From Candidatus Zipacnadia bacterium (lineage in GTDB: Bacteria; Armatimonadota; Zipacnadia; Zipacnadales; UBA5352): a stretch of 58,191 bases of DNA. This document shows positions 3,678 through 47,879 of the stretch, in pieces. The notes beneath the pieces are model-generated. The model saw only the letters and a program-made list of their open reading frames with translations. It ran no database searches and was not told where the DNA came from. Each line of letters begins with the position of its first letter. Position 1 is the first letter of the stretch. The stretch spans positions 1-58,191 of the forward strand of contig JALGVA010000009.1 of the NCBI GenBank assembly GCA_029820295.1, written 5' to 3'. The translations under genes and the position numbers were made by a program.

Positions 3678-4310
3678 TCACGCGCGCGCTTCGCGCTCGT
3701 CGCCCTCCGGTTCGAGTTCGAGGTCCAGCTCCAGCGGCTCCCAGCCGGCCAGGCCCAGGTCCTCGGGCAGCGCCGCGCCCCACATGCGCCAGACGCGGCC
3801 GCTGAAGGCGAGGCTGAACAGCCCGCCGCCGGCGAGGGCGATGGCGAGGTAGCCCAGGGCGAGGTGGTGCTGCACGTGTGCGAGGTAGGATGCGGGGGCG
3901 TGCCAGGCGTCGAGCATGAAGAACGAGTACGCGCGTCCGGCGAGCACGGCGGCGAGGCACAGGCCGACGATGACGGGCGAGGCGCAGGCCGCCGCCATGC
4001 GCAGGGCCTCGTCGCGGCGCAGGCGCGCGATGTGGCAGGCGACGAGCGACCCGAGCAGGGCGCCCAGGTAGACGCTCAGGCGCTGGGAGGGGTCGGCCAG
4101 TACCGACAGGTCCCACCAGTGCGCCCCCATGCGGGCGCTGATGGCCAGGTGCGTACCCGCGCCCGCGGGCGCGCCGATCATCGCCCCCCATGAGCCGATG
4201 CGGAAGAGCCGGTGCCAGCGCTCGGGAAGCAGCTCCGCATAGGACCACATGTAGAGGCAGGCCGCGCACGCGGCCACCGCCCCCGCAGTTGTCAGCCACT
4301 GGATGTGCAT
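3678..4310 (-). CDS. small polytopic membrane protein of unknown function, last gene of the flotillin operon
   Basis: 210 aa, hydrophobic segments throughout, acidic C-terminus. Co-directional with and 107 nt downstream of the flotillin gene. Confidence 0.4.
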   Translation of the reverse strand: MHIQWLTTAGAVAACAACLYMWSYAELLPERWHRLFRIGSWGAMIGAPAGAGTHLAISARMGAHWWDLSVLADPSQRLSVYLGALLGSLVACHIARLRRDEALRMAAACASPVIVGLCLAAVLAGRAYSFFMLDAWHAPASYLAHVQHHLALGYLAIALAGGGLFSLAFSGRVWRMWGAALPEDLGLAGWEPLELDLELEPEGDEREARA

Positions 4311-4347
4311 GTCGCTCGCTCATCCCCCGGGGTGCCGAGGGGAAATC

Positions 4348-4376
4348 GGGGGACGCGAGTCGCGCTCGCGTCCCCC
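4348..4376 (-). terminator. GC-rich hairpin (12-bp perfect stem, 5-nt loop) just downstream of the flotillin stop
   Basis: GGGGGACGCGAG tcgcg CTCGCGTCCCCC. There is no U-tract, which is usual in this GC range. Confidence 0.4.
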
Positions 4377-4416
4377 GGTCGTGTCCGAGCAGTCTACCCC
4401 ACCGCCCCCCGGCCTG

Positions 4417-6393
4417 TCACGCCGGTTCGCCGGCGGAGCCGTCGGTGGCGTCCTCCTTCGCCTCGACGGCCTCCACGACCTCCCCGCTCGGCGCGCGGCC
4501 GTTGGCGGTCGCGGTGAACCGGCTGATCGCCCCGGCCAGCACGTCACGCAGCTCGGGGATGGCGTTGCTCAGGGTTGCGGCGGCGGCCTCGATGGCGCCC
4601 TCGGGCATGGTGCTGGTGAAGCCGTCCACCCAGGCGCTGACGCCGGCCGCCTTGGAGAACGAGTCGAGCACGCCGCCCAGCATCTGCGGGTCGCCGTAGA
4701 GGTTCATGTCGGCGGCGCTCAGTGCGCTGCCCACCGACTGGGCGAAGGCCACGCCCACCTCCTTGCGGGCGCTGATGTCCGCGAGCACCTTCTCCAGCTC
4801 GACGGAGATCTGCTCGTACTCGGCCTTGGCCGCAAGCTCGGAGCGCAGCACCTGCACGCGGGCGGCCTCGACATCCTGGACGCGCTGGGCGTCCACCGCC
4901 ACCTGCTCGCGGTTGACGTTGACCGGCACCATCTGCCTGGCCTGCTCGCCCTCGGCGGTGAGCCGGGCGGCGTCGCGCTCGGCCTCGGCCTTGGCGCGGA
5001 TGGCCTCGGCGAGGCGGGCGGCCGCCTGCTGCTCGCCCTCGGCGACCTTGGCGTTCTTGTAGGCGGCGATGTCGGCCTCCATCTGCTGGCCAATCTTCTC
5101 CTGCTCCGCCGCCTGCTCGGCCGCGATCACCTGCACGCGCTTCTCGCGGTCGGCGGTCGCCACCTCTTCGACGGTGATGACCTCCTGCGCGGCCGCCTCA
5201 CGCTGCGCCTCCGCGGTGAGCTGCTCCTCCTCGGCCGCGGCGCGCCGCTGCTCGGCCTGAGCGATCGCCACCTGCCGCTCGCGCTGCGCCACCTCGACGG
5301 CGCGGTCGCGCTCCACGTCCGCGGTCTGGATCGCCTGGTTGCGCAGGATGTCCGCGGTCTGCTGCTCCTGCTCCTTGGCGATCAGGTCCTTCTGCGCCTG
5401 CACCTTGGCGACGTTGACCAGCAGATCGCGCTGTACACTGGCCTCCTGCACCTGCCGGTCCTTGTCGATCTCCTTGGTCTCTACCAGCCGGCGCTGCTCG
5501 ATCTCGTAGGTCTCGGCCTCCTGCCGGCGCTCCGAGCGGATCATCGCCACCTCGGACGCCTGCGTCGCCTCGGCTTCGGCCTGGTCCTTCTCGAGGTCGA
5601 GCACCTGCTTGCGGGTGTCCACGTTCTTCTGCGTGATCTCCCGCTCGGCATCGCGCTCGTACATGTTGCGCTCGACCCGCGCCTGCTGCGTGATCTCGGC
5701 GATCTTGCGCAGGCCCTGGGCGTCGAACACGTTATGCTCGTTGAGGCGCTCGGTGTCGGTCTGGTCGAGCCGGGAGATGGTCACCGACTCGAGCGTGAGG
5801 CCGTTGGACTTGAGGTCCTCGCGCACCAGGTCAGATACCGCGGTGGCGAAGTCGTCGCGCTCGGCGTGCAGTTGCGCGAGATCGCGCGTGGCCGCCACCG
5901 AACGCAGCGCGGATACGAGCTTCTCGAAGACCAGGTCCCGCACCGCCTCGGCGTTCACCGAGCGATCGCCGAGCGACCGGGACGCGTTGAGGATGTCGTC
6001 TTTGACGGCCTGCACCTTGATGTAGAACTCGGCGCGGATGTCGCAGCGCAGGTTGTCGCGGGTGATCAGGGCGTCCTCCCCGCCGCGCTCAACCTCCAGC
6101 TTCATGGTTTCGAGCACCACCGGCACGGTCTTGTGCACCACCGGGATCACGATGGCGCCGCCGTCGAGGACGACCGCACGGCCGCCCATGCCGGTGCGCA
6201 CGAAGGCCTCGTTGGCGCTGGTGCGCTGATAGAGCCGGGCGATGATGATCAGCACGCCCGACACCATCAGGATGACCGCGCCGATCACGGTCAGGATGAT
6301 CTGGCTGACCCAGGACACCTGACCGAACATGTCCGTCCACGGACCGATCACCAGCACGATGCCCAGGAGCACCATGACGATCGGAAGCAGCAT
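4417..6393 (-). CDS. flotillin / SPFH (band-7) domain protein, YqiK-like
   Basis: N-terminal TM segment, an SPFH domain, then a long Ala/Glu/Gln-rich coiled coil. Start chosen at MLLPIV (ATG 6393) because a GGAGGAG RBS sits 6 nt upstream. Confidence 0.8.
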   Translation of the reverse strand: MLLPIVMVLLGIVLVIGPWTDMFGQVSWVSQIILTVIGAVILMVSGVLIIIARLYQRTSANEAFVRTGMGGRAVVLDGGAIVIPVVHKTVPVVLETMKLEVERGGEDALITRDNLRCDIRAEFYIKVQAVKDDILNASRSLGDRSVNAEAVRDLVFEKLVSALRSVAATRDLAQLHAERDDFATAVSDLVREDLKSNGLTLESVTISRLDQTDTERLNEHNVFDAQGLRKIAEITQQARVERNMYERDAEREITQKNVDTRKQVLDLEKDQAEAEATQASEVAMIRSERRQEAETYEIEQRRLVETKEIDKDRQVQEASVQRDLLVNVAKVQAQKDLIAKEQEQQTADILRNQAIQTADVERDRAVEVAQRERQVAIAQAEQRRAAAEEEQLTAEAQREAAAQEVITVEEVATADREKRVQVIAAEQAAEQEKIGQQMEADIAAYKNAKVAEGEQQAAARLAEAIRAKAEAERDAARLTAEGEQARQMVPVNVNREQVAVDAQRVQDVEAARVQVLRSELAAKAEYEQISVELEKVLADISARKEVGVAFAQSVGSALSAADMNLYGDPQMLGGVLDSFSKAAGVSAWVDGFTSTMPEGAIEAAAATLSNAIPELRDVLAGAISRFTATANGRAPSGEVVEAVEAKEDATDGSAGEPA

Positions 6394-6433
6394 CGACCTC
6401 TCCTCCTGTCGCACGTCTTGTACGACGACCGGA

Positions 6434-7498
6434 TCACTGCTGGCTCAGGATGTCGGTGTCCCGGGCGGCGGGTGGACGTTCGCCGAACCGGCGCGTCTGG
6501 ACATCTTCAGGGCCAGCGACGCCGCCGGCACGAGCGCGCCCGTGCCCGTGCGCACCATCGTCTGACAGCGGAGATGTGGCGACATCATAGTAGTCACCCT
6601 CCGGGTGGTACCGGATCAAAATGACCTCGACTCCCTTGGGGACGCCACCGTCCATGGTGCGGCCCATGACCTGGTGCAGCGTGCCGCCCTCGTCCTTGAC
6701 GTGCACCAGCCCGCGCGCGCCCTCGTGGATGCCGTAGACGCAGGTGCCCACGTGCCCAACCAGGTCCTCCTCGGTCACCGCGTAGGTCTCGCGCGTGGGC
6801 ATGATGCGGCTCAGACCGCGCGCCACCGTACCGGTAAGCATCAGCGACGTCAGCGTGGCCAGCGCCAAGGACGGCCAGAAGTACACCGCCGGGCCCCACG
6901 AGAACGGCAGCACATGCTCGAACAGCCCGTTGGCGATCAGCCCCGAGGCGCCGAAGAGCACCATCAGGCAGGTCATCAGAATCGACACCGGCACCTTGCC
7001 GAAGCCCAGCACCGACAGCGCTCGGATCAGCAGCGACGGCTGCTGCGCGACCACCTCGTGCGCCTCGTGCTCGACGCCATGGCCGGGCCCGTGCTCACCT
7101 GCCACGTCGTGCTCGGTCGCCACGTCATGGTCGATGTCGTGGTCCATGTCCACGTCATGGTCCACGTCCAGGTCATGGTCTACGTCGAGATCGTGATCCA
7201 CGTCCAGGTCATGGTCCATGTCGATGTCGTGATCGGCGCCGATGTCCAGGTCATGATCCATGTCCAGATCATGCGCCAGGTCCACGTCGTGCGTGAGATC
7301 GACGTCGTGCGCGAGATCGACGTCGTGGTCCATGTCCACGTCGTGGGCCAGATCGAGGTCATGGGAGAGATCGACGTCGTGGTCCACGTCGGTGTCGTGC
7401 ACCTCGCTGCCGAGGCCCACGGCGCTGAGCACCAGGTAGACGCCGGAGAGGGCGACCGGCGCGACGAAGATCAGGTTGTACCACTCCAGCAGGTTCAT
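6434..7498 (-). CDS. NfeD-like (YqiJ-type) membrane protein with a long His-Asp repeat region
   Basis: N-terminal TM, then about 100 aa of (H-D-[VLI]-D-[LMV]-x) repeats, then TM segments and a C-terminal NfeD-like OB-fold region (VGHVGTCVYGIHEGARGLVHV...). An AAGGAGG RBS precedes the ATG at 7498. It lies immediately upstream of the flotillin gene, the typical nfeD-flotillin pairing. Confidence 0.7.
   Translation of the reverse strand: MNLLEWYNLIFVAPVALSGVYLVLSAVGLGSEVHDTDVDHDVDLSHDLDLAHDVDMDHDVDLAHDVDLTHDVDLAHDLDMDHDLDIGADHDIDMDHDLDVDHDLDVDHDLDVDHDVDMDHDIDHDVATEHDVAGEHGPGHGVEHEAHEVVAQQPSLLIRALSVLGFGKVPVSILMTCLMVLFGASGLIANGLFEHVLPFSWGPAVYFWPSLALATLTSLMLTGTVARGLSRIMPTRETYAVTEEDLVGHVGTCVYGIHEGARGLVHVKDEGGTLHQVMGRTMDGGVPKGVEVILIRYHPEGDYYDVATSPLSDDGAHGHGRARAGGVAGPEDVQTRRFGERPPAARDTDILSQQ
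7093..7402. repeat. 12-nt tandem coding repeat (GTCCACGTCATG-like units, about 25 copies) encoding the HDVD repeats of the NfeD-like protein
   Basis: Periodicity is visible directly in the sequence: gtccacgtcatggtccacgtccaggtcatggtctacgtcgagatcgtgatc... Confidence 0.8.
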
Positions 7499-7546
7499 CG
7501 CCCCGACCTCCTTGTGGCCGCAGAGCGGCGATTCCGGGGCAGTGCG

Positions 7547-8137
7547 TCAGTCCTGCGACAGGTGCGCCTCGCTATCGGACTCGTCCAGCAGCGCCCGCGC
7601 GCGCGCGAGCAGATCCCGCTCGGCAGGCCCCACTGGCGCCGCCGGCACCTCATCGGCGGGCGCGCCGGCGTCGAGTTGCGCCAGCACATCGAGTCTGTGC
7701 GCCTCGGCGCGCGCCTCGTCCTCCAGCCGGGCCAGCTCCTCGTCATGGCGCGCATGGCCGGCGCGCCCGATGGCCGCGCGCAGGTCGTCGCGCCGCCGGC
7801 TGATCTCGGCGCTGTGACGCACCGCGCCGAGCCGCTCCAGCCGCTCCTCCTCGGCCTCTTCGCGCTGCCGGTAGCGCTCGAGCAGTTCGTCGGCGCGCGC
7901 CCGCTCCTCCTCGAGGCGCGGCACCAGCGCGCTCAGCCGCGTCATCTCCGGCTCGGGCGCGGCCATCAGCTCGCGCAGCTCCAGCTCGGTGCGCCGCGCC
8001 TGGGCGACCGCCAGCAGCGCGAGTGTGCGCAGCTCCTCCAGCTCGGCGCGGACCTGCTCGGCCTCGCGCTCGCGCTCGTCCGTGTCGGCACGAAAAAAGT
8101 CAGCTACAATCGATCGCAGCCAACTGATGATCCGCAT
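7547..8137 (-). CDS. PspA/IM30-like coiled-coil protein (tentative)
   Basis: 196 aa, almost entirely charged coiled coil. The N-terminal amphipathic helix MRIISWLRSIVADFFRA resembles the PspA/Vipp1 N-terminus (MGIFSRFADII...). An AAGAGGG RBS is upstream. Confidence 0.4.
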   Translation of the reverse strand: MRIISWLRSIVADFFRADTDEREREAEQVRAELEELRTLALLAVAQARRTELELRELMAAPEPEMTRLSALVPRLEEERARADELLERYRQREEAEEERLERLGAVRHSAEISRRRDDLRAAIGRAGHARHDEELARLEDEARAEAHRLDVLAQLDAGAPADEVPAAPVGPAERDLLARARALLDESDSEAHLSQD

Positions 8138-8427
8138 ATTCGGCTGTACACCCTCTTAGCGGGCCTCTATGAGGAATATACCCCCCGCGCGCGGGGTCAA
8201 ACGGAAACCGGATTCCGCAGGCTTGCCGCAGCCGCCGGGCGCACGCTCCGGCCTTCCCGTGCGACGGGCGTCTCGCCCGTCGGCCGTCGCCACCGCCGTA
8301 CCGATGGGCCGCCCACGCCCCGCCGCCAGGCGCCGTCGCCGCTGCCGTAGGGAGGGGCCGCCCGGTGCCGCCCGTGGCCGGGACCGGGTGAGCCTCGCGA
8401 GCCGGAGGCGAGCGGGGGAGGGCCCCA

Positions 8428-10143
8428 TCACGGCGCGCCTTCCTCCTCCTGCGCCATGCGCCCAAGCACCTGCTTCGCGCCGGCGGCCCCGGCACCTGCC
8501 CCCGCCGCGGCCTTCTCCAGCGCCGGCCGCGCGGGCTCGCCGATCTCCATCAGCAGGTGCTGGGCGCTCTCGCGCGTGATGCTGTCCTCGGCGCCGAGTG
8601 CCTCGATGAGCGCCGGCACCGCCGTCTCGCCCATCGCGGGCAGCGCCTCCCAGGCCGCGCGCGACCGCTCATCCCGCGAGCGAGCGCCCAGGGCCTCGAT
8701 CATCACCTCGACGCCCCGCGGGTCGCCGATCGCGCCCAGGGCCTCGATCGCCGCGCCGCTGGCGCCGCGCAGGTCGGCCCGGGCGAGCGCGATCAGCGGC
8801 TCCACCGCGCGCTCGTCGCCGATCTTCCTCAGCGCCTCCGCAGTCGCCTCGACCACATCGGTATCGCCGTGCTTGAGCAGCGGCACCAGCACCTCGACCG
8901 CGCGCGCGTCCCCCAGCTCGCCCAGGGCGATCACGATCTCGTCCACGGCCCACTCGTTGCAGTCGGCCAGGGCCGCGATGAGCGGCTCGACCGCACGTGG
9001 GTCGCCGATTCGCCCCAGCGCCTGGGCGGCGCGCGCCGGCCTCGTCGGGCCGTCCTCCTCCAGCAGGCCGATCAGGTAGGGCACCGCGCGCGCATCGCCG
9101 ATCTCGCCCAGGGCGATGATCGCGTTGACGTCCGCATTGACCCGGCGCTCTTCGTCATCCAGCAGCGCCAGCAGCGGCGCCACCGCGCGCGCATCGCCCA
9201 GATCGCCCAGGGCCGAGGCGGCCGCGCTGCGCACGCTGTACGCCGGGTCGTGGAGCATCGCCACCATCTCGTCGAGCGTGGTCGGGTCGGCCAGCTCGCC
9301 CAACCCCCTGAGCGCCTCCGCGCGCACGCCCTCGCTGCTGTGCCGCAGGGCGCTGAGCAGCGTGCTCCGATCGCGGGCGGAGCGATCGGCGGGTAGCTGT
9401 GTCGGGACCGTCTCCCCGGGCGGCAGCAGCCAGGTGATGGCCTTCGCGGCGGCGCTGCTCGCCCCGGGTGCGTCGAGCGCCATGACTTCCTCGAGCACCA
9501 CCCGCGCCCGCGGGTCCTGGATGTCACCCAGCGCCTCCGCCATCGCGCCTATGGGCAGCTCGGTCGGGTTGTACTCGTGCGGCGCCATCACGATCTGGCT
9601 GTCGGCGGGCGGCTCGACGGTCGCCACCGCCTCGGGGTCATGGCGCGCGATGCGCCGGCGCAACTCGCCGACGAGCGGTTCGACCGCGCGCTGGTCGTGC
9701 ATGCGGCCCAGCGCCCGCGCCGCCCGTGCCGCCACCATGGGGTCGTCGTGACGCAGCGCCCGCAGCAGCGGCTCGAGCGCCTCCTCGCCGGCCCGGCCCA
9801 GCACCTCCTGGGCCGTGTGCGCGATCCGCCCGTCCTCGTGGCCGAGCGCCGCGATGAGCTTCCGTATGCCCGCCGGGCCGCACCCGGCGAGGCCCTCGGC
9901 GACGCTCAGGTCCCCCGCCAGGAACTCGTCGGCGATGCGCTCCGCCCGCCGGGCGTCGCTCATGCGCATGAAGCCCGGTGCGGGCGCGGCCAGCCACTCC
10001 TCCTCCGTGACCACCAGGCGATCGGCCGCGAAGTAGATGATGACCGCGAGTACGATGGCGGCGGGGATGAACCACGGGCGGAATTCGACCGACCAGAAGT
10101 GCACCCTGGGACTGCTGCTGCGCTCTTCGTGTGTGGGCGACAT
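8428..10143 (-). CDS. membrane-anchored HEAT-repeat protein (PBS-lyase HEAT-like repeats)
   Basis: One TM near the N-terminus, then at least 10 repeats of the form ...ALGxIGDxRAVEPLIxxL.... Start chosen at MSPTHEER (ATG 10143) with a GAGGGGG RBS. Confidence 0.7.
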   Translation of the reverse strand: MSPTHEERSSSPRVHFWSVEFRPWFIPAAIVLAVIIYFAADRLVVTEEEWLAAPAPGFMRMSDARRAERIADEFLAGDLSVAEGLAGCGPAGIRKLIAALGHEDGRIAHTAQEVLGRAGEEALEPLLRALRHDDPMVAARAARALGRMHDQRAVEPLVGELRRRIARHDPEAVATVEPPADSQIVMAPHEYNPTELPIGAMAEALGDIQDPRARVVLEEVMALDAPGASSAAAKAITWLLPPGETVPTQLPADRSARDRSTLLSALRHSSEGVRAEALRGLGELADPTTLDEMVAMLHDPAYSVRSAAASALGDLGDARAVAPLLALLDDEERRVNADVNAIIALGEIGDARAVPYLIGLLEEDGPTRPARAAQALGRIGDPRAVEPLIAALADCNEWAVDEIVIALGELGDARAVEVLVPLLKHGDTDVVEATAEALRKIGDERAVEPLIALARADLRGASGAAIEALGAIGDPRGVEVMIEALGARSRDERSRAAWEALPAMGETAVPALIEALGAEDSITRESAQHLLMEIGEPARPALEKAAAGAGAGAAGAKQVLGRMAQEEEGAP

Positions 10144-10195
10144 ATGCGCCCCCTCGTGAGGTGGCTCGCATGGCAGGTCCACGGCGGACCGGCGG

Positions 10196-46343: not shown

Positions 46344-47879
46344 TTACTCCCAGCCCCCGCCTTCCTCCTCCTGCGTGCCGAAGCGGCGCTCGCCGATGCC
46401 CATGCGCTGCAGCGCGCGCTCGGCCGCGTTGGCCACCATCGGGCTCGGGTCGCGCATCGCCTCGGTCAGCGCGGGCGCGGCCTCCCGGTTGCGCATGTTG
46501 CCCACCGACAGCACCGCCGCCCAGCGCACATCCTCGTTCGGGTCCTTGAAGAGCTGGATCAGCGCCTCGCTCGCGGCCGGCTGGATGAAATGCCCCAGCT
46601 CCGTTGCCGCCGCCTGGCGCACGGCCGACGACCTGTCTGCGGTCGCGCGCACCAGTGGCAGCAGCGCCCCCTCGTCGTGGATCCAGCCCAGCGCGCGCAC
46701 CGCCGCCTCGCGCACGCGGTCGGACTCGTCCTTCGTCGCCGCGTAGGACAGGTCATCCAGCGCCGCCAGCCCCGGCACTCCCGCCAGCGCCAGCGCCGCC
46801 CACCAGCGCACCTCCTCCTCCGGGTCGTGCAGCGCCTCACCCAGGATCGGCGCCGAACTCGCCTGCCCCAGGTAGCCCAGGCCCTGCGCCGCGCTTGCGC
46901 GCACCAGGTAGTCGGGATCGTTCTGCAGCGCGTGTTCCAGCGGCGCCACGCCTTCGAGGATCGCCGGGTGCGACTCCGGGATGCTCTGCTTCTTGATGTC
47001 CAGGGCCAGCCGCGCGAACTCCTGCTGCTGCTCGCTGGTGCCCGCGCAGATCAGGCCGACGGTGCACGCCGCCGCCGCGCGCGCCACCGGGTCCTCAGCG
47101 GTCTCCAGCACCTCGATGACCACCGGCAGCACCTTCTGCCCGATGGGCACGAGCTGCATCTGCAGTTGCGCCGTCGCGTCATCGCGCCGCCGCGCCAGCA
47201 CCCGCGCCACCCACTCGGCGGTGAGCATCGTCTCCCGGTTCTCCTTCGCCAGGCGCACCGTCATCTCCGCCCCCAGCGCCGCCGAGCGCACCGCCGCGTC
47301 CCCGGAGTCCTGCAGCCGCGCCAGCAGCGCGATCAGCTTCTCCGACAGCGGCGCGCGCGCCAGACTAGAGATCGCCATCTCGCGCACACCCGACTCCGGG
47401 TCGGTCTCCGCGGCCTGCGCGAGCGCATCCTCGGCCCCGGCCGGCATGGTGCCCAGCACCGCCGCCGCCTGCTGGCGCACCTGCGCCACCCTCGAGTTCA
47501 GCAGCAGGTCCTTGAGGATCGCCTGCGCCTGCCGCTTCTGCTCATCAGTGCCCACCATCAGCACGCCGCGCAGCCGATCCAGCTCCATGGTCGCGTACGA
47601 GCGATCGTAGTCGATCTCCATCTGCAGGCCCTGCAGCGCATCTCCAGGCACCGCGGCCGTCTCGGGCGTCATCTCGGCCGCTGCGTCGGGCGGCACCTCG
47701 CCCTCGTGCTCGTGGTCGGCCTCGCCCTCATGCTCGTGGTCGGCACGCCCCTCCTCGGGCGGCCGTTCGGTGACAATCTCGGTCGGCTGCTTCTGCTCCC
47801 GGCAGCCGCCCAGCGCGAGGATGCCTGTCCACGCCAGCAGCGCCATCAGCAGGAGGATCGGTCGCCATCTCATCCACAA
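46344..47879 (-). CDS. HEAT-repeat lipoprotein (PBS-lyase HEAT-like repeats)
   Basis: Signal peptide with lipobox LALGGC, then EGRADHEHEGEADHEHEGE, then at least 8 HEAT-like repeats (DPxxxVRxxAAxALG). Confidence 0.65.
   Translation of the reverse strand: MWMRWRPILLLMALLAWTGILALGGCREQKQPTEIVTERPPEEGRADHEHEGEADHEHEGEVPPDAAAEMTPETAAVPGDALQGLQMEIDYDRSYATMELDRLRGVLMVGTDEQKRQAQAILKDLLLNSRVAQVRQQAAAVLGTMPAGAEDALAQAAETDPESGVREMAISSLARAPLSEKLIALLARLQDSGDAAVRSAALGAEMTVRLAKENRETMLTAEWVARVLARRRDDATAQLQMQLVPIGQKVLPVVIEVLETAEDPVARAAAACTVGLICAGTSEQQQEFARLALDIKKQSIPESHPAILEGVAPLEHALQNDPDYLVRASAAQGLGYLGQASSAPILGEALHDPEEEVRWWAALALAGVPGLAALDDLSYAATKDESDRVREAAVRALGWIHDEGALLPLVRATADRSSAVRQAAATELGHFIQPAASEALIQLFKDPNEDVRWAAVLSVGNMRNREAAPALTEAMRDPSPMVANAAERALQRMGIGERRFGTQEEEGGGWE

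Follow-up and report, generated by a model that had tools for sequence, protein, structure and literature searches.

The minus strand of a 58,191-nt stretch of contig JALGVA010000009.1 from Candidatus Zipacnadia bacterium (Armatimonadota), which was analysed at its full length and is called the window here, carries the coding sequence of a 354-amino acid (aa) NfeD-like protein of the YqiJ/YuaF type (6434..7498, stop included), recognised from the list of open reading frames (ORFs), homologues, profile matches and AlphaFold2 (AF2) modelling. A Shine-Dalgarno-like AAGGAGG (7507..7513, -; cctcctt on the plus strand) is placed 8 nt upstream of its ATG at 7498. Between the first transmembrane (TM) helix and the remainder of this protein lies a long array of regularly spaced His and Asp residues, encoded at 7094..7399 (-) and corresponding to residues 34-135. 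A previous interpretation based on the letters alone (the sequence-only reading) had placed a tandem His/Asp array here, after the first TM helix of an NfeD-like, flotillin-linked protein, and the position of the array, its coding nature and the identity of its host were all borne out, the latter by a YuaF profile match, an NfeD OB fold and a Band_7 gene directly downstream.

The array is composed of 17 units of about 6 aa that follow the pattern HDxDxx and form an (x-Asp)n alternation. Read in order, units 1-9 are HDTDVD, HDVDLS, HDLDLA, HDVDMD, HDVDLA, HDVDLT, HDVDLA, HDLDMD and HDLDIGAD, and units 10-17 are HDIDMD, HDLDVD, HDLDVD, HDLDVD, HDVDMD, HDID, HDVATE and HDVAGE, with 17 HD dipeptides and 15 HDxD motifs in all and with successive HD spacings of 6 (eight times), 8, 6 (five times), 4 and 6 residues. 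Tandem Repeats Finder, at a score threshold of 50, assigned to the array a period of 18 nt (6 aa) and super-periods of 36 and 54 nt, with scores of 101-167, the best-scoring period being that of 54 nt (18 aa); a 12-nt period was recovered in two stretches only, with 2.6-2.8 copies each. The sequence-only reading had counted about 25 repeats of a 12-nt, 4-aa unit, a description that gives way to one of about 17 copies of an 18-nt, 6-aa unit. Asp is present at 38 of the 45 alternate positions, and the other phase follows the order H-[VLI]-[LMVI]. Residues 31-150, 120 in all, include 41 Asp, 21 His and 6 Glu; Lys and Arg are absent, and the net charge of the linker is near -47. This composition, His plus Asp/Glu with zero basic residues, is that of known metal-binding low-complexity regions (LCRs). 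The array is followed by a linker tail (7055..7093, -; residues 136-148, GPGHGVEHEAHE) rich in His, Glu and Gly, whose end motif, GVEHEVH, is conserved in orthologues.

A six-frame scan of the 58-kb window revealed no second genuine coding segment with an equal density of His-acid pairs, and this, together with repeat scores of 101-167 against the threshold of 50, sets the array far from chance. An explanation in terms of RNA or DNA structure was rejected, since the folding of the array mRNA had a z-score of -1.7, with 6 of 100 shuffles folding equally well, and a single weak palindrome was found in the array. Two antisense ORFs, 6605-8350 (+) of 581 aa and 4303-6624 (+) of 773 aa, lie opposite the NfeD-like and flotillin genes and are probably shadow ORFs without a coding role. 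Since GAC and GTC, like CAC and GTG, are reverse complements, the antisense frame opposite the array reads HVMVDVVVHVHV.

The DNA copies within the array are 61-78% identical and differ on average at 5.8 of 18 nt, the longest exact repeat being 21 nt, and units that encode an identical hexapeptide differ at 1-5 of 18 nt, always synonymously. This synonymous divergence between identical peptides, together with the low identity of the copies and the shortness of the longest exact repeat, indicates that the repeat is old and maintained at the protein level, with selection apparently acting on the peptide and not on the DNA. A slippage-prone tandem repeat made of near-identical DNA units is ruled out by the same 61-78% identity and 21-nt longest exact repeat. 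The slippage proposed by the sequence-only reading was supported in one respect, in that array length varies among orthologues and in one case between near-identical proteins, and is weak for the window copy, whose units have diverged. The near-identical pair is formed by P0009 (353 aa) and P0189 (328 aa), which differ by one substitution and by 25 aa that are missing, in frame, from the array of P0189; both belong, with P0190, which carries a full-length array, to the cluster of the protein from the orthologous locus L012. The difference between them is either a true copy-number polymorphism or a repeat collapse in metagenome assembly. In the closest public relative (L002, 4647-5000 of contig CAZTZN010000118.1), 88% identical in the conserved part, the His/Asp array is interrupted by a run of N and by a change of frame, and its deposited protein (P0001, 206 aa) begins after the array. 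Arrays of this kind therefore break assembly and gene calling in public metagenome-assembled genomes (MAGs).

The host of the array is a YqiJ/YuaF-type NfeD protein, with three TM helices, a C-terminal OB fold and a flotillin neighbour. In an AF2 model of the window protein, built from a 50-sequence alignment, the three N-terminal TM helices comprise residues 6-27, 171-196 and 203-232. TM1 (7418..7483, -; helix with predicted local distance difference test, pLDDT, >85; hydropathy peak at residues 6-31) is preceded by a short, acidic N tail, MNLLEWYN, without Lys or Arg. After the linker, a short and apparently amphipathic helix (7001..7033, -; residues 156-166, SLLIRALSVLG), which bears the sole positive charges near the linker, runs into a conserved LGFGKVP motif, in whose alignment the G, G, K, V and P columns are invariant or nearly so. 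TM2 (6911..6988, -) and TM3 (6803..6892, -) follow, the latter ending in ARGLSRIMPTRE with three Arg, and a C-terminal five-stranded OB-fold domain (6575..6751, -; residues 250-308, pLDDT >90) comes after them. TM1 and TM2 were clear by hydropathy as well, and TM3 fell under the 1.6 threshold. Residues 34-152 were modelled with pLDDT <50 and no secondary structure. The tail beyond the conserved SPL motif (6434-6565, -; residues 312-354) is variable and predicted to be disordered, and many orthologues end at SPL and lack it.

A Foldseek search against the PDB returned NfeD OB domains as its top three matches, namely 2K14 YuaF (E=1.5e-4), 3WWV PH1510-C (E=5.9e-4) and 3CP0 (E=8e-4). The window protein alone scored 20 bits against the Pfam family YqiJ_N (PF21001; cut-off 23, E=8e-4), matching profile positions 42-115 only, those after the array, since the domain is split by it; the score is marginal, just under the cut-off. 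Searching with the part after the array yielded 38 homologues, of which the named ones were all from Armatimonadota and many carried PF21001; a profile of that region (A1) matched 2K14, the solved soluble domain of Bacillus subtilis YuaF (E=0.001), and an exhaustive search with it recovered 1509 cluster representatives at E<=0.001. The window protein itself was absent from the protein collection by exact look-up. YqiJ/YuaF proteins have been described as three-TM proteins of flotillin operons with the same architecture (PMC11237479; PMC2636767).

The flotillin-type SPFH/Band_7 gene of the window (4417..6414, -; 665 aa; Pfam Band_7 E=3.9e-18), which encodes the presumed partner, begins 20 nt downstream of the NfeD-like gene on the same strand. 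A contig scan for orthologous loci, performed with patterns from close relatives and reaching Armatimonadota only, showed that a flotillin gene adjoins the NfeD-like gene in 16 of 16 loci from Armatimonadota MAGs. In 15 of these the order was coiled-coil gene, nfeD-like gene and flotillin gene, the contig of the sixteenth ending before the upstream gene. Flotillin genes also follow distant members of the family whose linkers are His-only, Asp-only or mixed, such as P0068 (His/Gly-rich), P0143 (Asp-only) and P0142 (a His-rich kinase fusion), and this adjacency holds in distant members wherever the contigs are long enough. The first gene of the three-gene cassette corresponds in the window to a 196-aa ORF (7547..8137, -), charged and coiled-coil-like, with a hydrophobic N terminus (MRIISWLRSIVADFF). 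Its assignment as a PspA-like protein was tested and found no match in Pfam, NCBIfam or the PDB; by analogy, it could be a PspA-like or other membrane-remodelling partner, and PspA-flotillin-YqiJ operons have been described (PMC11237479).

The comparison of copy number in orthologues, which the sequence-only reading had suggested, revealed a His/Asp array between TM1 and the conserved block in every orthologue, with units of 6 or 8 aa depending on the lineage and with about 80-170 residues ahead of the conserved block. In the wider family, the TM1-TM2 linker was measured in 131 representatives, and had a median length of 43 aa (interquartile range 33-53) and median contents of 29% Asp plus Glu, 15% His and 0% Lys plus Arg. 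Mixed His/acid linkers (His at least 10%, Asp plus Glu at least 20%) were found in 79 of the 131, Asp-rich linkers with almost no His in 15 and His-rich linkers with little acid in 6. Only one linker among them reached 100 aa, which makes the window linker of about 125 aa an extreme case. Even spacings from one HD to the next made up 201 of the 203 counted in orthologues and 212 of the 232 counted among family representatives; an Asp-to-Asp spacing of 2 dominated, and the residues between Asp positions were mainly H, V, L and A. Escherichia coli YqiJ has a short LDAHLDHYD at the linker position, and nothing similar was found in YbbJ, the other NfeD of E. coli. Since all orthologues carry an array and most of the 131 representatives a shorter His/Asp-rich linker in the corresponding position, the array is a greatly expanded and unusually regular copy of the linker typical of YqiJ/YuaF-type NfeD proteins and not an artefact. 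The swapping of His-rich, Asp-rich and mixed versions at this position fits a ligand role better than a purely electrostatic one.

Searched with by itself, the repeat gave three matches in a set of 5.8 billion proteins, all of them YqiJ_N; the composition correction of HMMER removes most low-complexity matches, and such a search therefore cannot show whether the repeat occurs in other families. Against the PDB, only the Arg-Asp repeats of NELF-E were matched, a hit rejected as compositional. The matches of the window protein to the NCBIfam adhesin families SdrC/D and ClfA/B (24-28 bits, with cut-offs of 999-2500), to NCBIfam RNase E and to Pfam LED_rpt (17.9 against 59 bits) all lay far under the respective cut-offs and were likewise rejected as compositional. 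In a literature search, no paper describing the linker was found, those on YqiJ, DUF1449 or YuaF making no mention of it, and searches on His-Asp repeats or His-Asp-rich sequences returned no papers. With regard to phenotypes, a yqiJ frameshift in Salmonella had no egg-white phenotype, and yqiJ was merely listed in a silver screen.

The side of the membrane on which the linker lies was approached by several lines of evidence. In the window protein, Lys and Arg are absent ahead of TM1, both occur immediately ahead of TM2, and TM3 is followed by three Arg; for a three-helix protein with its N terminus out and its C terminus in, this distribution fits the positive-inside rule. The N tails of 140 family proteins, 6.5 residues long on average, contained in total 9 Lys plus Arg against 138 Asp plus Glu, and were acidic and free of Lys and Arg in 132 of the 140. 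Natural fusions of the YqiJ module were also found: in P0142 (JGI 3300047160), a Ser/Thr protein kinase domain follows the OB domain with no further TM segment, and the gene is followed by a flotillin gene; in P0103, TM1 is preceded by one extra TM segment and a zf-HC2 domain, the latter with a match slightly below the Pfam cut-off. Both P0103 and P0166 are fusions with an N-terminal zf-HC2-like domain and an extra TM segment. These fusions hint at signalling roles. In characterised homologues, the OB domain of Staphylococcus aureus NfeD is cytosolic and binds the coiled coil of FloA (PMC11222466), and the QmcA-YbbJ cage protrudes into the cytoplasm according to the account of Tan 2024 cited in PMC13086221. 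The linker must share its side with the N end of TM2 and is therefore predicted to be cytoplasmic; taken together, the sequence features make it very probable that it lies on the cytoplasmic face, on the side of the OB domain. TM prediction, which had been proposed by the sequence-only reading as a way to choose between periplasm and cytoplasm, thus resolved towards the latter, and this outcome argues against the periplasmic capture of metals.

In this context, the array is tentatively regarded as a candidate ligand-binding loop for divalent cations and protons, formed by the expanded linker of a flotillin-partner NfeD, an interpretation held with a confidence somewhat short of even. Both ends of the loop are predicted to be held at the membrane, the first through TM1 and the second through the short helix and TM2, and the OB domain docks on flotillin in characterised homologues (PMC11222466). 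Through its carboxylates and imidazoles it would act as a low-affinity, high-capacity binder of divalent cations and protons, and binding would neutralise and compact an otherwise extended polyanion. Through such compaction, the shape or assembly of the NfeD-flotillin complex could come to depend on local metal or pH conditions near the membrane, or the loop might simply buffer cations there. The invariant even spacing puts every Asp in one phase and every His in the opposite one, which suggests that the loop, once it has bound a ligand, would be extended and show an all-carboxylate face. The His-rich, Asp-rich and mixed versions of the family linker all retain metal-ligating residues and exclude basic ones. 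Indirect links to metals also exist: prokaryotic His/Asp-rich LCRs have been associated with Ni/Co binding (PMC6821194), and disordered His-rich loops sense metals in transporters (PMC12203963). It was also reported that deletion of the YqiK-type flotillin SO1377 lowered free iron detectable by electron paramagnetic resonance (EPR) threefold, and the authors of that work speculated that the DUF1449 neighbour of SO1377 is a metallochaperone (PMC1468410).

Several considerations weigh against this ligand-binding interpretation. A His every 6 residues does not correspond to a classical high-affinity motif (HxH, HxxxH), and about one tenth of the family linkers have almost no His, which means that His is not essential for the family-wide role. 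Cytoplasmic pools of free Zn, Ni and Cu are minute, and Mg2+, Fe2+ or Mn2+ are therefore the realistic ligands, whose binding by Asp alone is weak. It is also unusual for a very acidic loop to be held on the inside, and its cytoplasmic placement is itself a prediction. The wide tolerance of length ahead of the conserved block (about 50-170 aa) fits a passive spacer equally well. Finally, AF2 models no metal ions, and its call of disorder is silent on the metal-bound state.

The main rival is, in fact, the passive spacer, according to which the linker is a polyanionic entropic bristle with no specific ligand, which its charge and disorder keep stretched out and repelled by the anionic membrane. 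Its role would be to space TM1 from the TM2-TM3-OB part, to fill volume under the flotillin assembly or to exclude macromolecules. This explanation is considered unlikely, if by no means negligible. It agrees with the disorder predicted by AF2, the net charge near -47 and total absence of Lys and Arg, the large variation in length among orthologues and across the family, and the existence of Asp-only variants, and the residues between Asp positions (mainly H, V, L and A) could be drift products of an Asp-rich ancestor, since a single mutation turns GAC into common codons of H, V and A. A spacer, however, needs no strict register, and yet 99% of the spacings in orthologues are even; the family as a whole retains His at about 15%, the few His-rich, low-acid members are not polyanionic, and the peptide units have been kept despite synonymous divergence. 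The same regularity raises a third explanation, a metal-dependent ordered structure in which a cation-bound (x-Asp)n strand forms a beta-sheet or solenoid whose carboxylate face orders a layer of ions, in the manner proposed for the (Asp-X)n matrix proteins of biomineralisation or that of RTX beta-rolls; beneath the flotillin assembly, such a structure might serve to nucleate or hold a mineral or a cluster of ions. For about 90 residues the binary alternation is perfect and confines Asp to one phase, the even spacing survives insertions and deletions, and the 54-nt (18-aa) super-period had the best repeat score. An ordered structure is nonetheless thought improbable, in view of the lack of strands in the AF2 prediction, of a Gly-rich turn motif and of the RTX consensus; no solved structure with this repeat was found, the PDB giving only the compositional NELF-E match, and a unit length of 6 or 8 aa according to lineage is unsuited to one fixed fold.

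Two further explanations are given still less credence. If the topology were reversed, the array would be an extracytoplasmic metal-capture loop that scavenges or senses Zn, Ni or Cu in the periplasm or at the cell surface. The membrane potential can drive acidic segments beside a TM helix outward, and a predicted lipoprotein of the same genome contains a Glu/His motif. This is opposed by the Arg and Lys that flank TM2 and TM3 on the side of the loop and the OB domain, by the acidic, Lys/Arg-free N tails of 132 of 140 family members, and by the fusions, the kinase placing the C-terminal side in the cytoplasm and the zf-HC2 domain with its extra TM placing the N terminus of TM1 outside. Characterised NfeD OB domains are, moreover, cytosolic (PMC11222466; Tan 2024 as cited in PMC13086221), and an extracytoplasmic loop is accordingly judged very unlikely. 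The other explanation sees in the array a slippage-prone contingency repeat, whose main significance would be rapid and reversible change in copy number; array length does differ among all orthologues, and both the 25-aa in-frame gap between P0189 and P0009 and the run of N and frame change of L002 fall within the array. Against this, the units of the window copy are only 61-78% identical with no exact repeat above 21 nt, a unit that is a multiple of three makes on/off switching impossible, and assemblers can collapse repeats, which could explain both the 25-aa difference and the L002 gap. It is the least credible of the explanations weighed here.

A bolder extension of the ligand-binding interpretation concerns the assembly as a whole. 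Other pairs of NfeD and SPFH proteins have been shown to form a physical complex (PMC11222466; Tan 2024, cited in PMC13086221), and the QmcA-YbbJ cage was reported with 26 heterodimers. By analogy, an NfeD-flotillin cage of about 1:1 composition might concentrate dozens of loops into a membrane-attached polyanionic compartment acting as a cation buffer or proton sensor, a proposal that is speculative and has little likelihood. If it were true, each loop would bring about 47 carboxylates and 21 imidazoles, with dozens of loops at one membrane patch, and the compartment could store or buffer Fe2+, Mn2+ or Mg2+, or sense pH or membrane leaks by collapsing on proton entry. Flotillin microdomains of bacteria would then have a concrete biochemical function, and the free-iron phenotype of the Shewanella SO1377 mutant could find an explanation. 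Bacterial flotillins and their NfeD partners are widespread and their biochemical function is poorly defined, and it is in this respect that the array may matter: YqiJ/YuaF NfeD proteins usually have an (x-Asp)n/His linker, predicted to face the cytoplasm, with a strictly kept register and expandable to more than 100 residues, which yields the hypothesis of cation or proton binding at the flotillin platform and ties it to an old unexplained iron phenotype. On its own, the array is a compositional feature in a known family, of moderate significance.

Among known systems, the closest are YqiJ from E. coli and YuaF from B. subtilis (DUF1449, the NfeD partners of the SPFH2 flotillins YqiK/FloT), which also have three TM helices and an OB fold and a gene directly upstream of a flotillin gene, YqiJ having in addition a His/Asp segment after TM1. 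The window protein is about 24% identical to YqiJ and differs in the length of its linker, about 125 aa where the family median is 43 aa, and in its regular 17-unit array. The regulatory loop of IRT1/ZIP is likewise a disordered, His/acid-rich loop between TM helices for which divalent-metal sensing or binding has been proposed (PMC12203963). Such loops belong to metal-transporting proteins, whereas the window protein has no transporter domain, and they are shorter, richer in His and not strictly periodic. The His-rich cytoplasmic loops of CDF and RcnA are further transporter examples. The bacterial LCRs of Ni/Co/cobalamin-related proteins, whose link to metals comes from the annotation of the host protein, are also made mainly of His, Asp and Glu, with a mean of 36 residues, 53% His, 23% Asp and 9% Glu (PMC6821194). 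In the window array these proportions are reversed (about 34% Asp and 18% His), one third of the residues are aliphatic, the length is about three times greater and the host is a membrane protein without a known link to metal enzymes. Consequently, the array is set apart from known His/Asp LCRs by an excess of Asp over His, by its aliphatic third, by its strict periodicity and by its length of about 100 residues.

The alternation itself is shared with proteins of quite different kinds. The Ser-Asp repeats of staphylococcal Clf/Sdr proteins, extracellular stalks in the cell wall, show the same (x-Asp)n pattern over about 100 residues or more, which accounts for the NCBIfam matches to them, and differ in that x is Ser there and His or an aliphatic residue in the window array. 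The (Asp-X)n acidic matrix proteins of biomineralisation, in which Asp occupies every second residue and a cation-binding carboxylate face has been proposed, are eukaryotic and secreted and have Gly or Ser as X; compared by description, they share the alternation with the window array, where x is again His or aliphatic. An RTX beta-roll (nonapeptide GGxGxDxUx) was excluded by the 6-aa period, the near absence of Gly and the lack of predicted strands. A hexapeptide left-handed beta-helix ([LIV]-[GAED]-x2-[STAV]-x) was rejected as well, there being no Pfam hexapeptide match, a pLDDT <50 and no predicted secondary structure; His sits at the position of that helix which requires a small residue.

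Two other genes of the window complete the picture. Adjoining the cassette is a 584-aa HEAT-repeat protein (8428-10182, -); L012 alone among the 16 orthologous loci had a match to it, and for this reason it probably lies outside the conserved unit. At a distance, a predicted HEAT-repeat lipoprotein (46344-47879, -) had been credited by the sequence-only reading with a theme related to the array. The sequence concerned, EGRADHEHEGEADHEHEGE, is indeed present about 17 residues after a lipobox-like LALGGC, and consists of two copies of a 9-aa Glu/His unit (ADHEHEGE); it is a different motif, unrelated to the 6-aa His/Asp unit and different from the array in predicted location, and is probably part of an extracytoplasmic tether.

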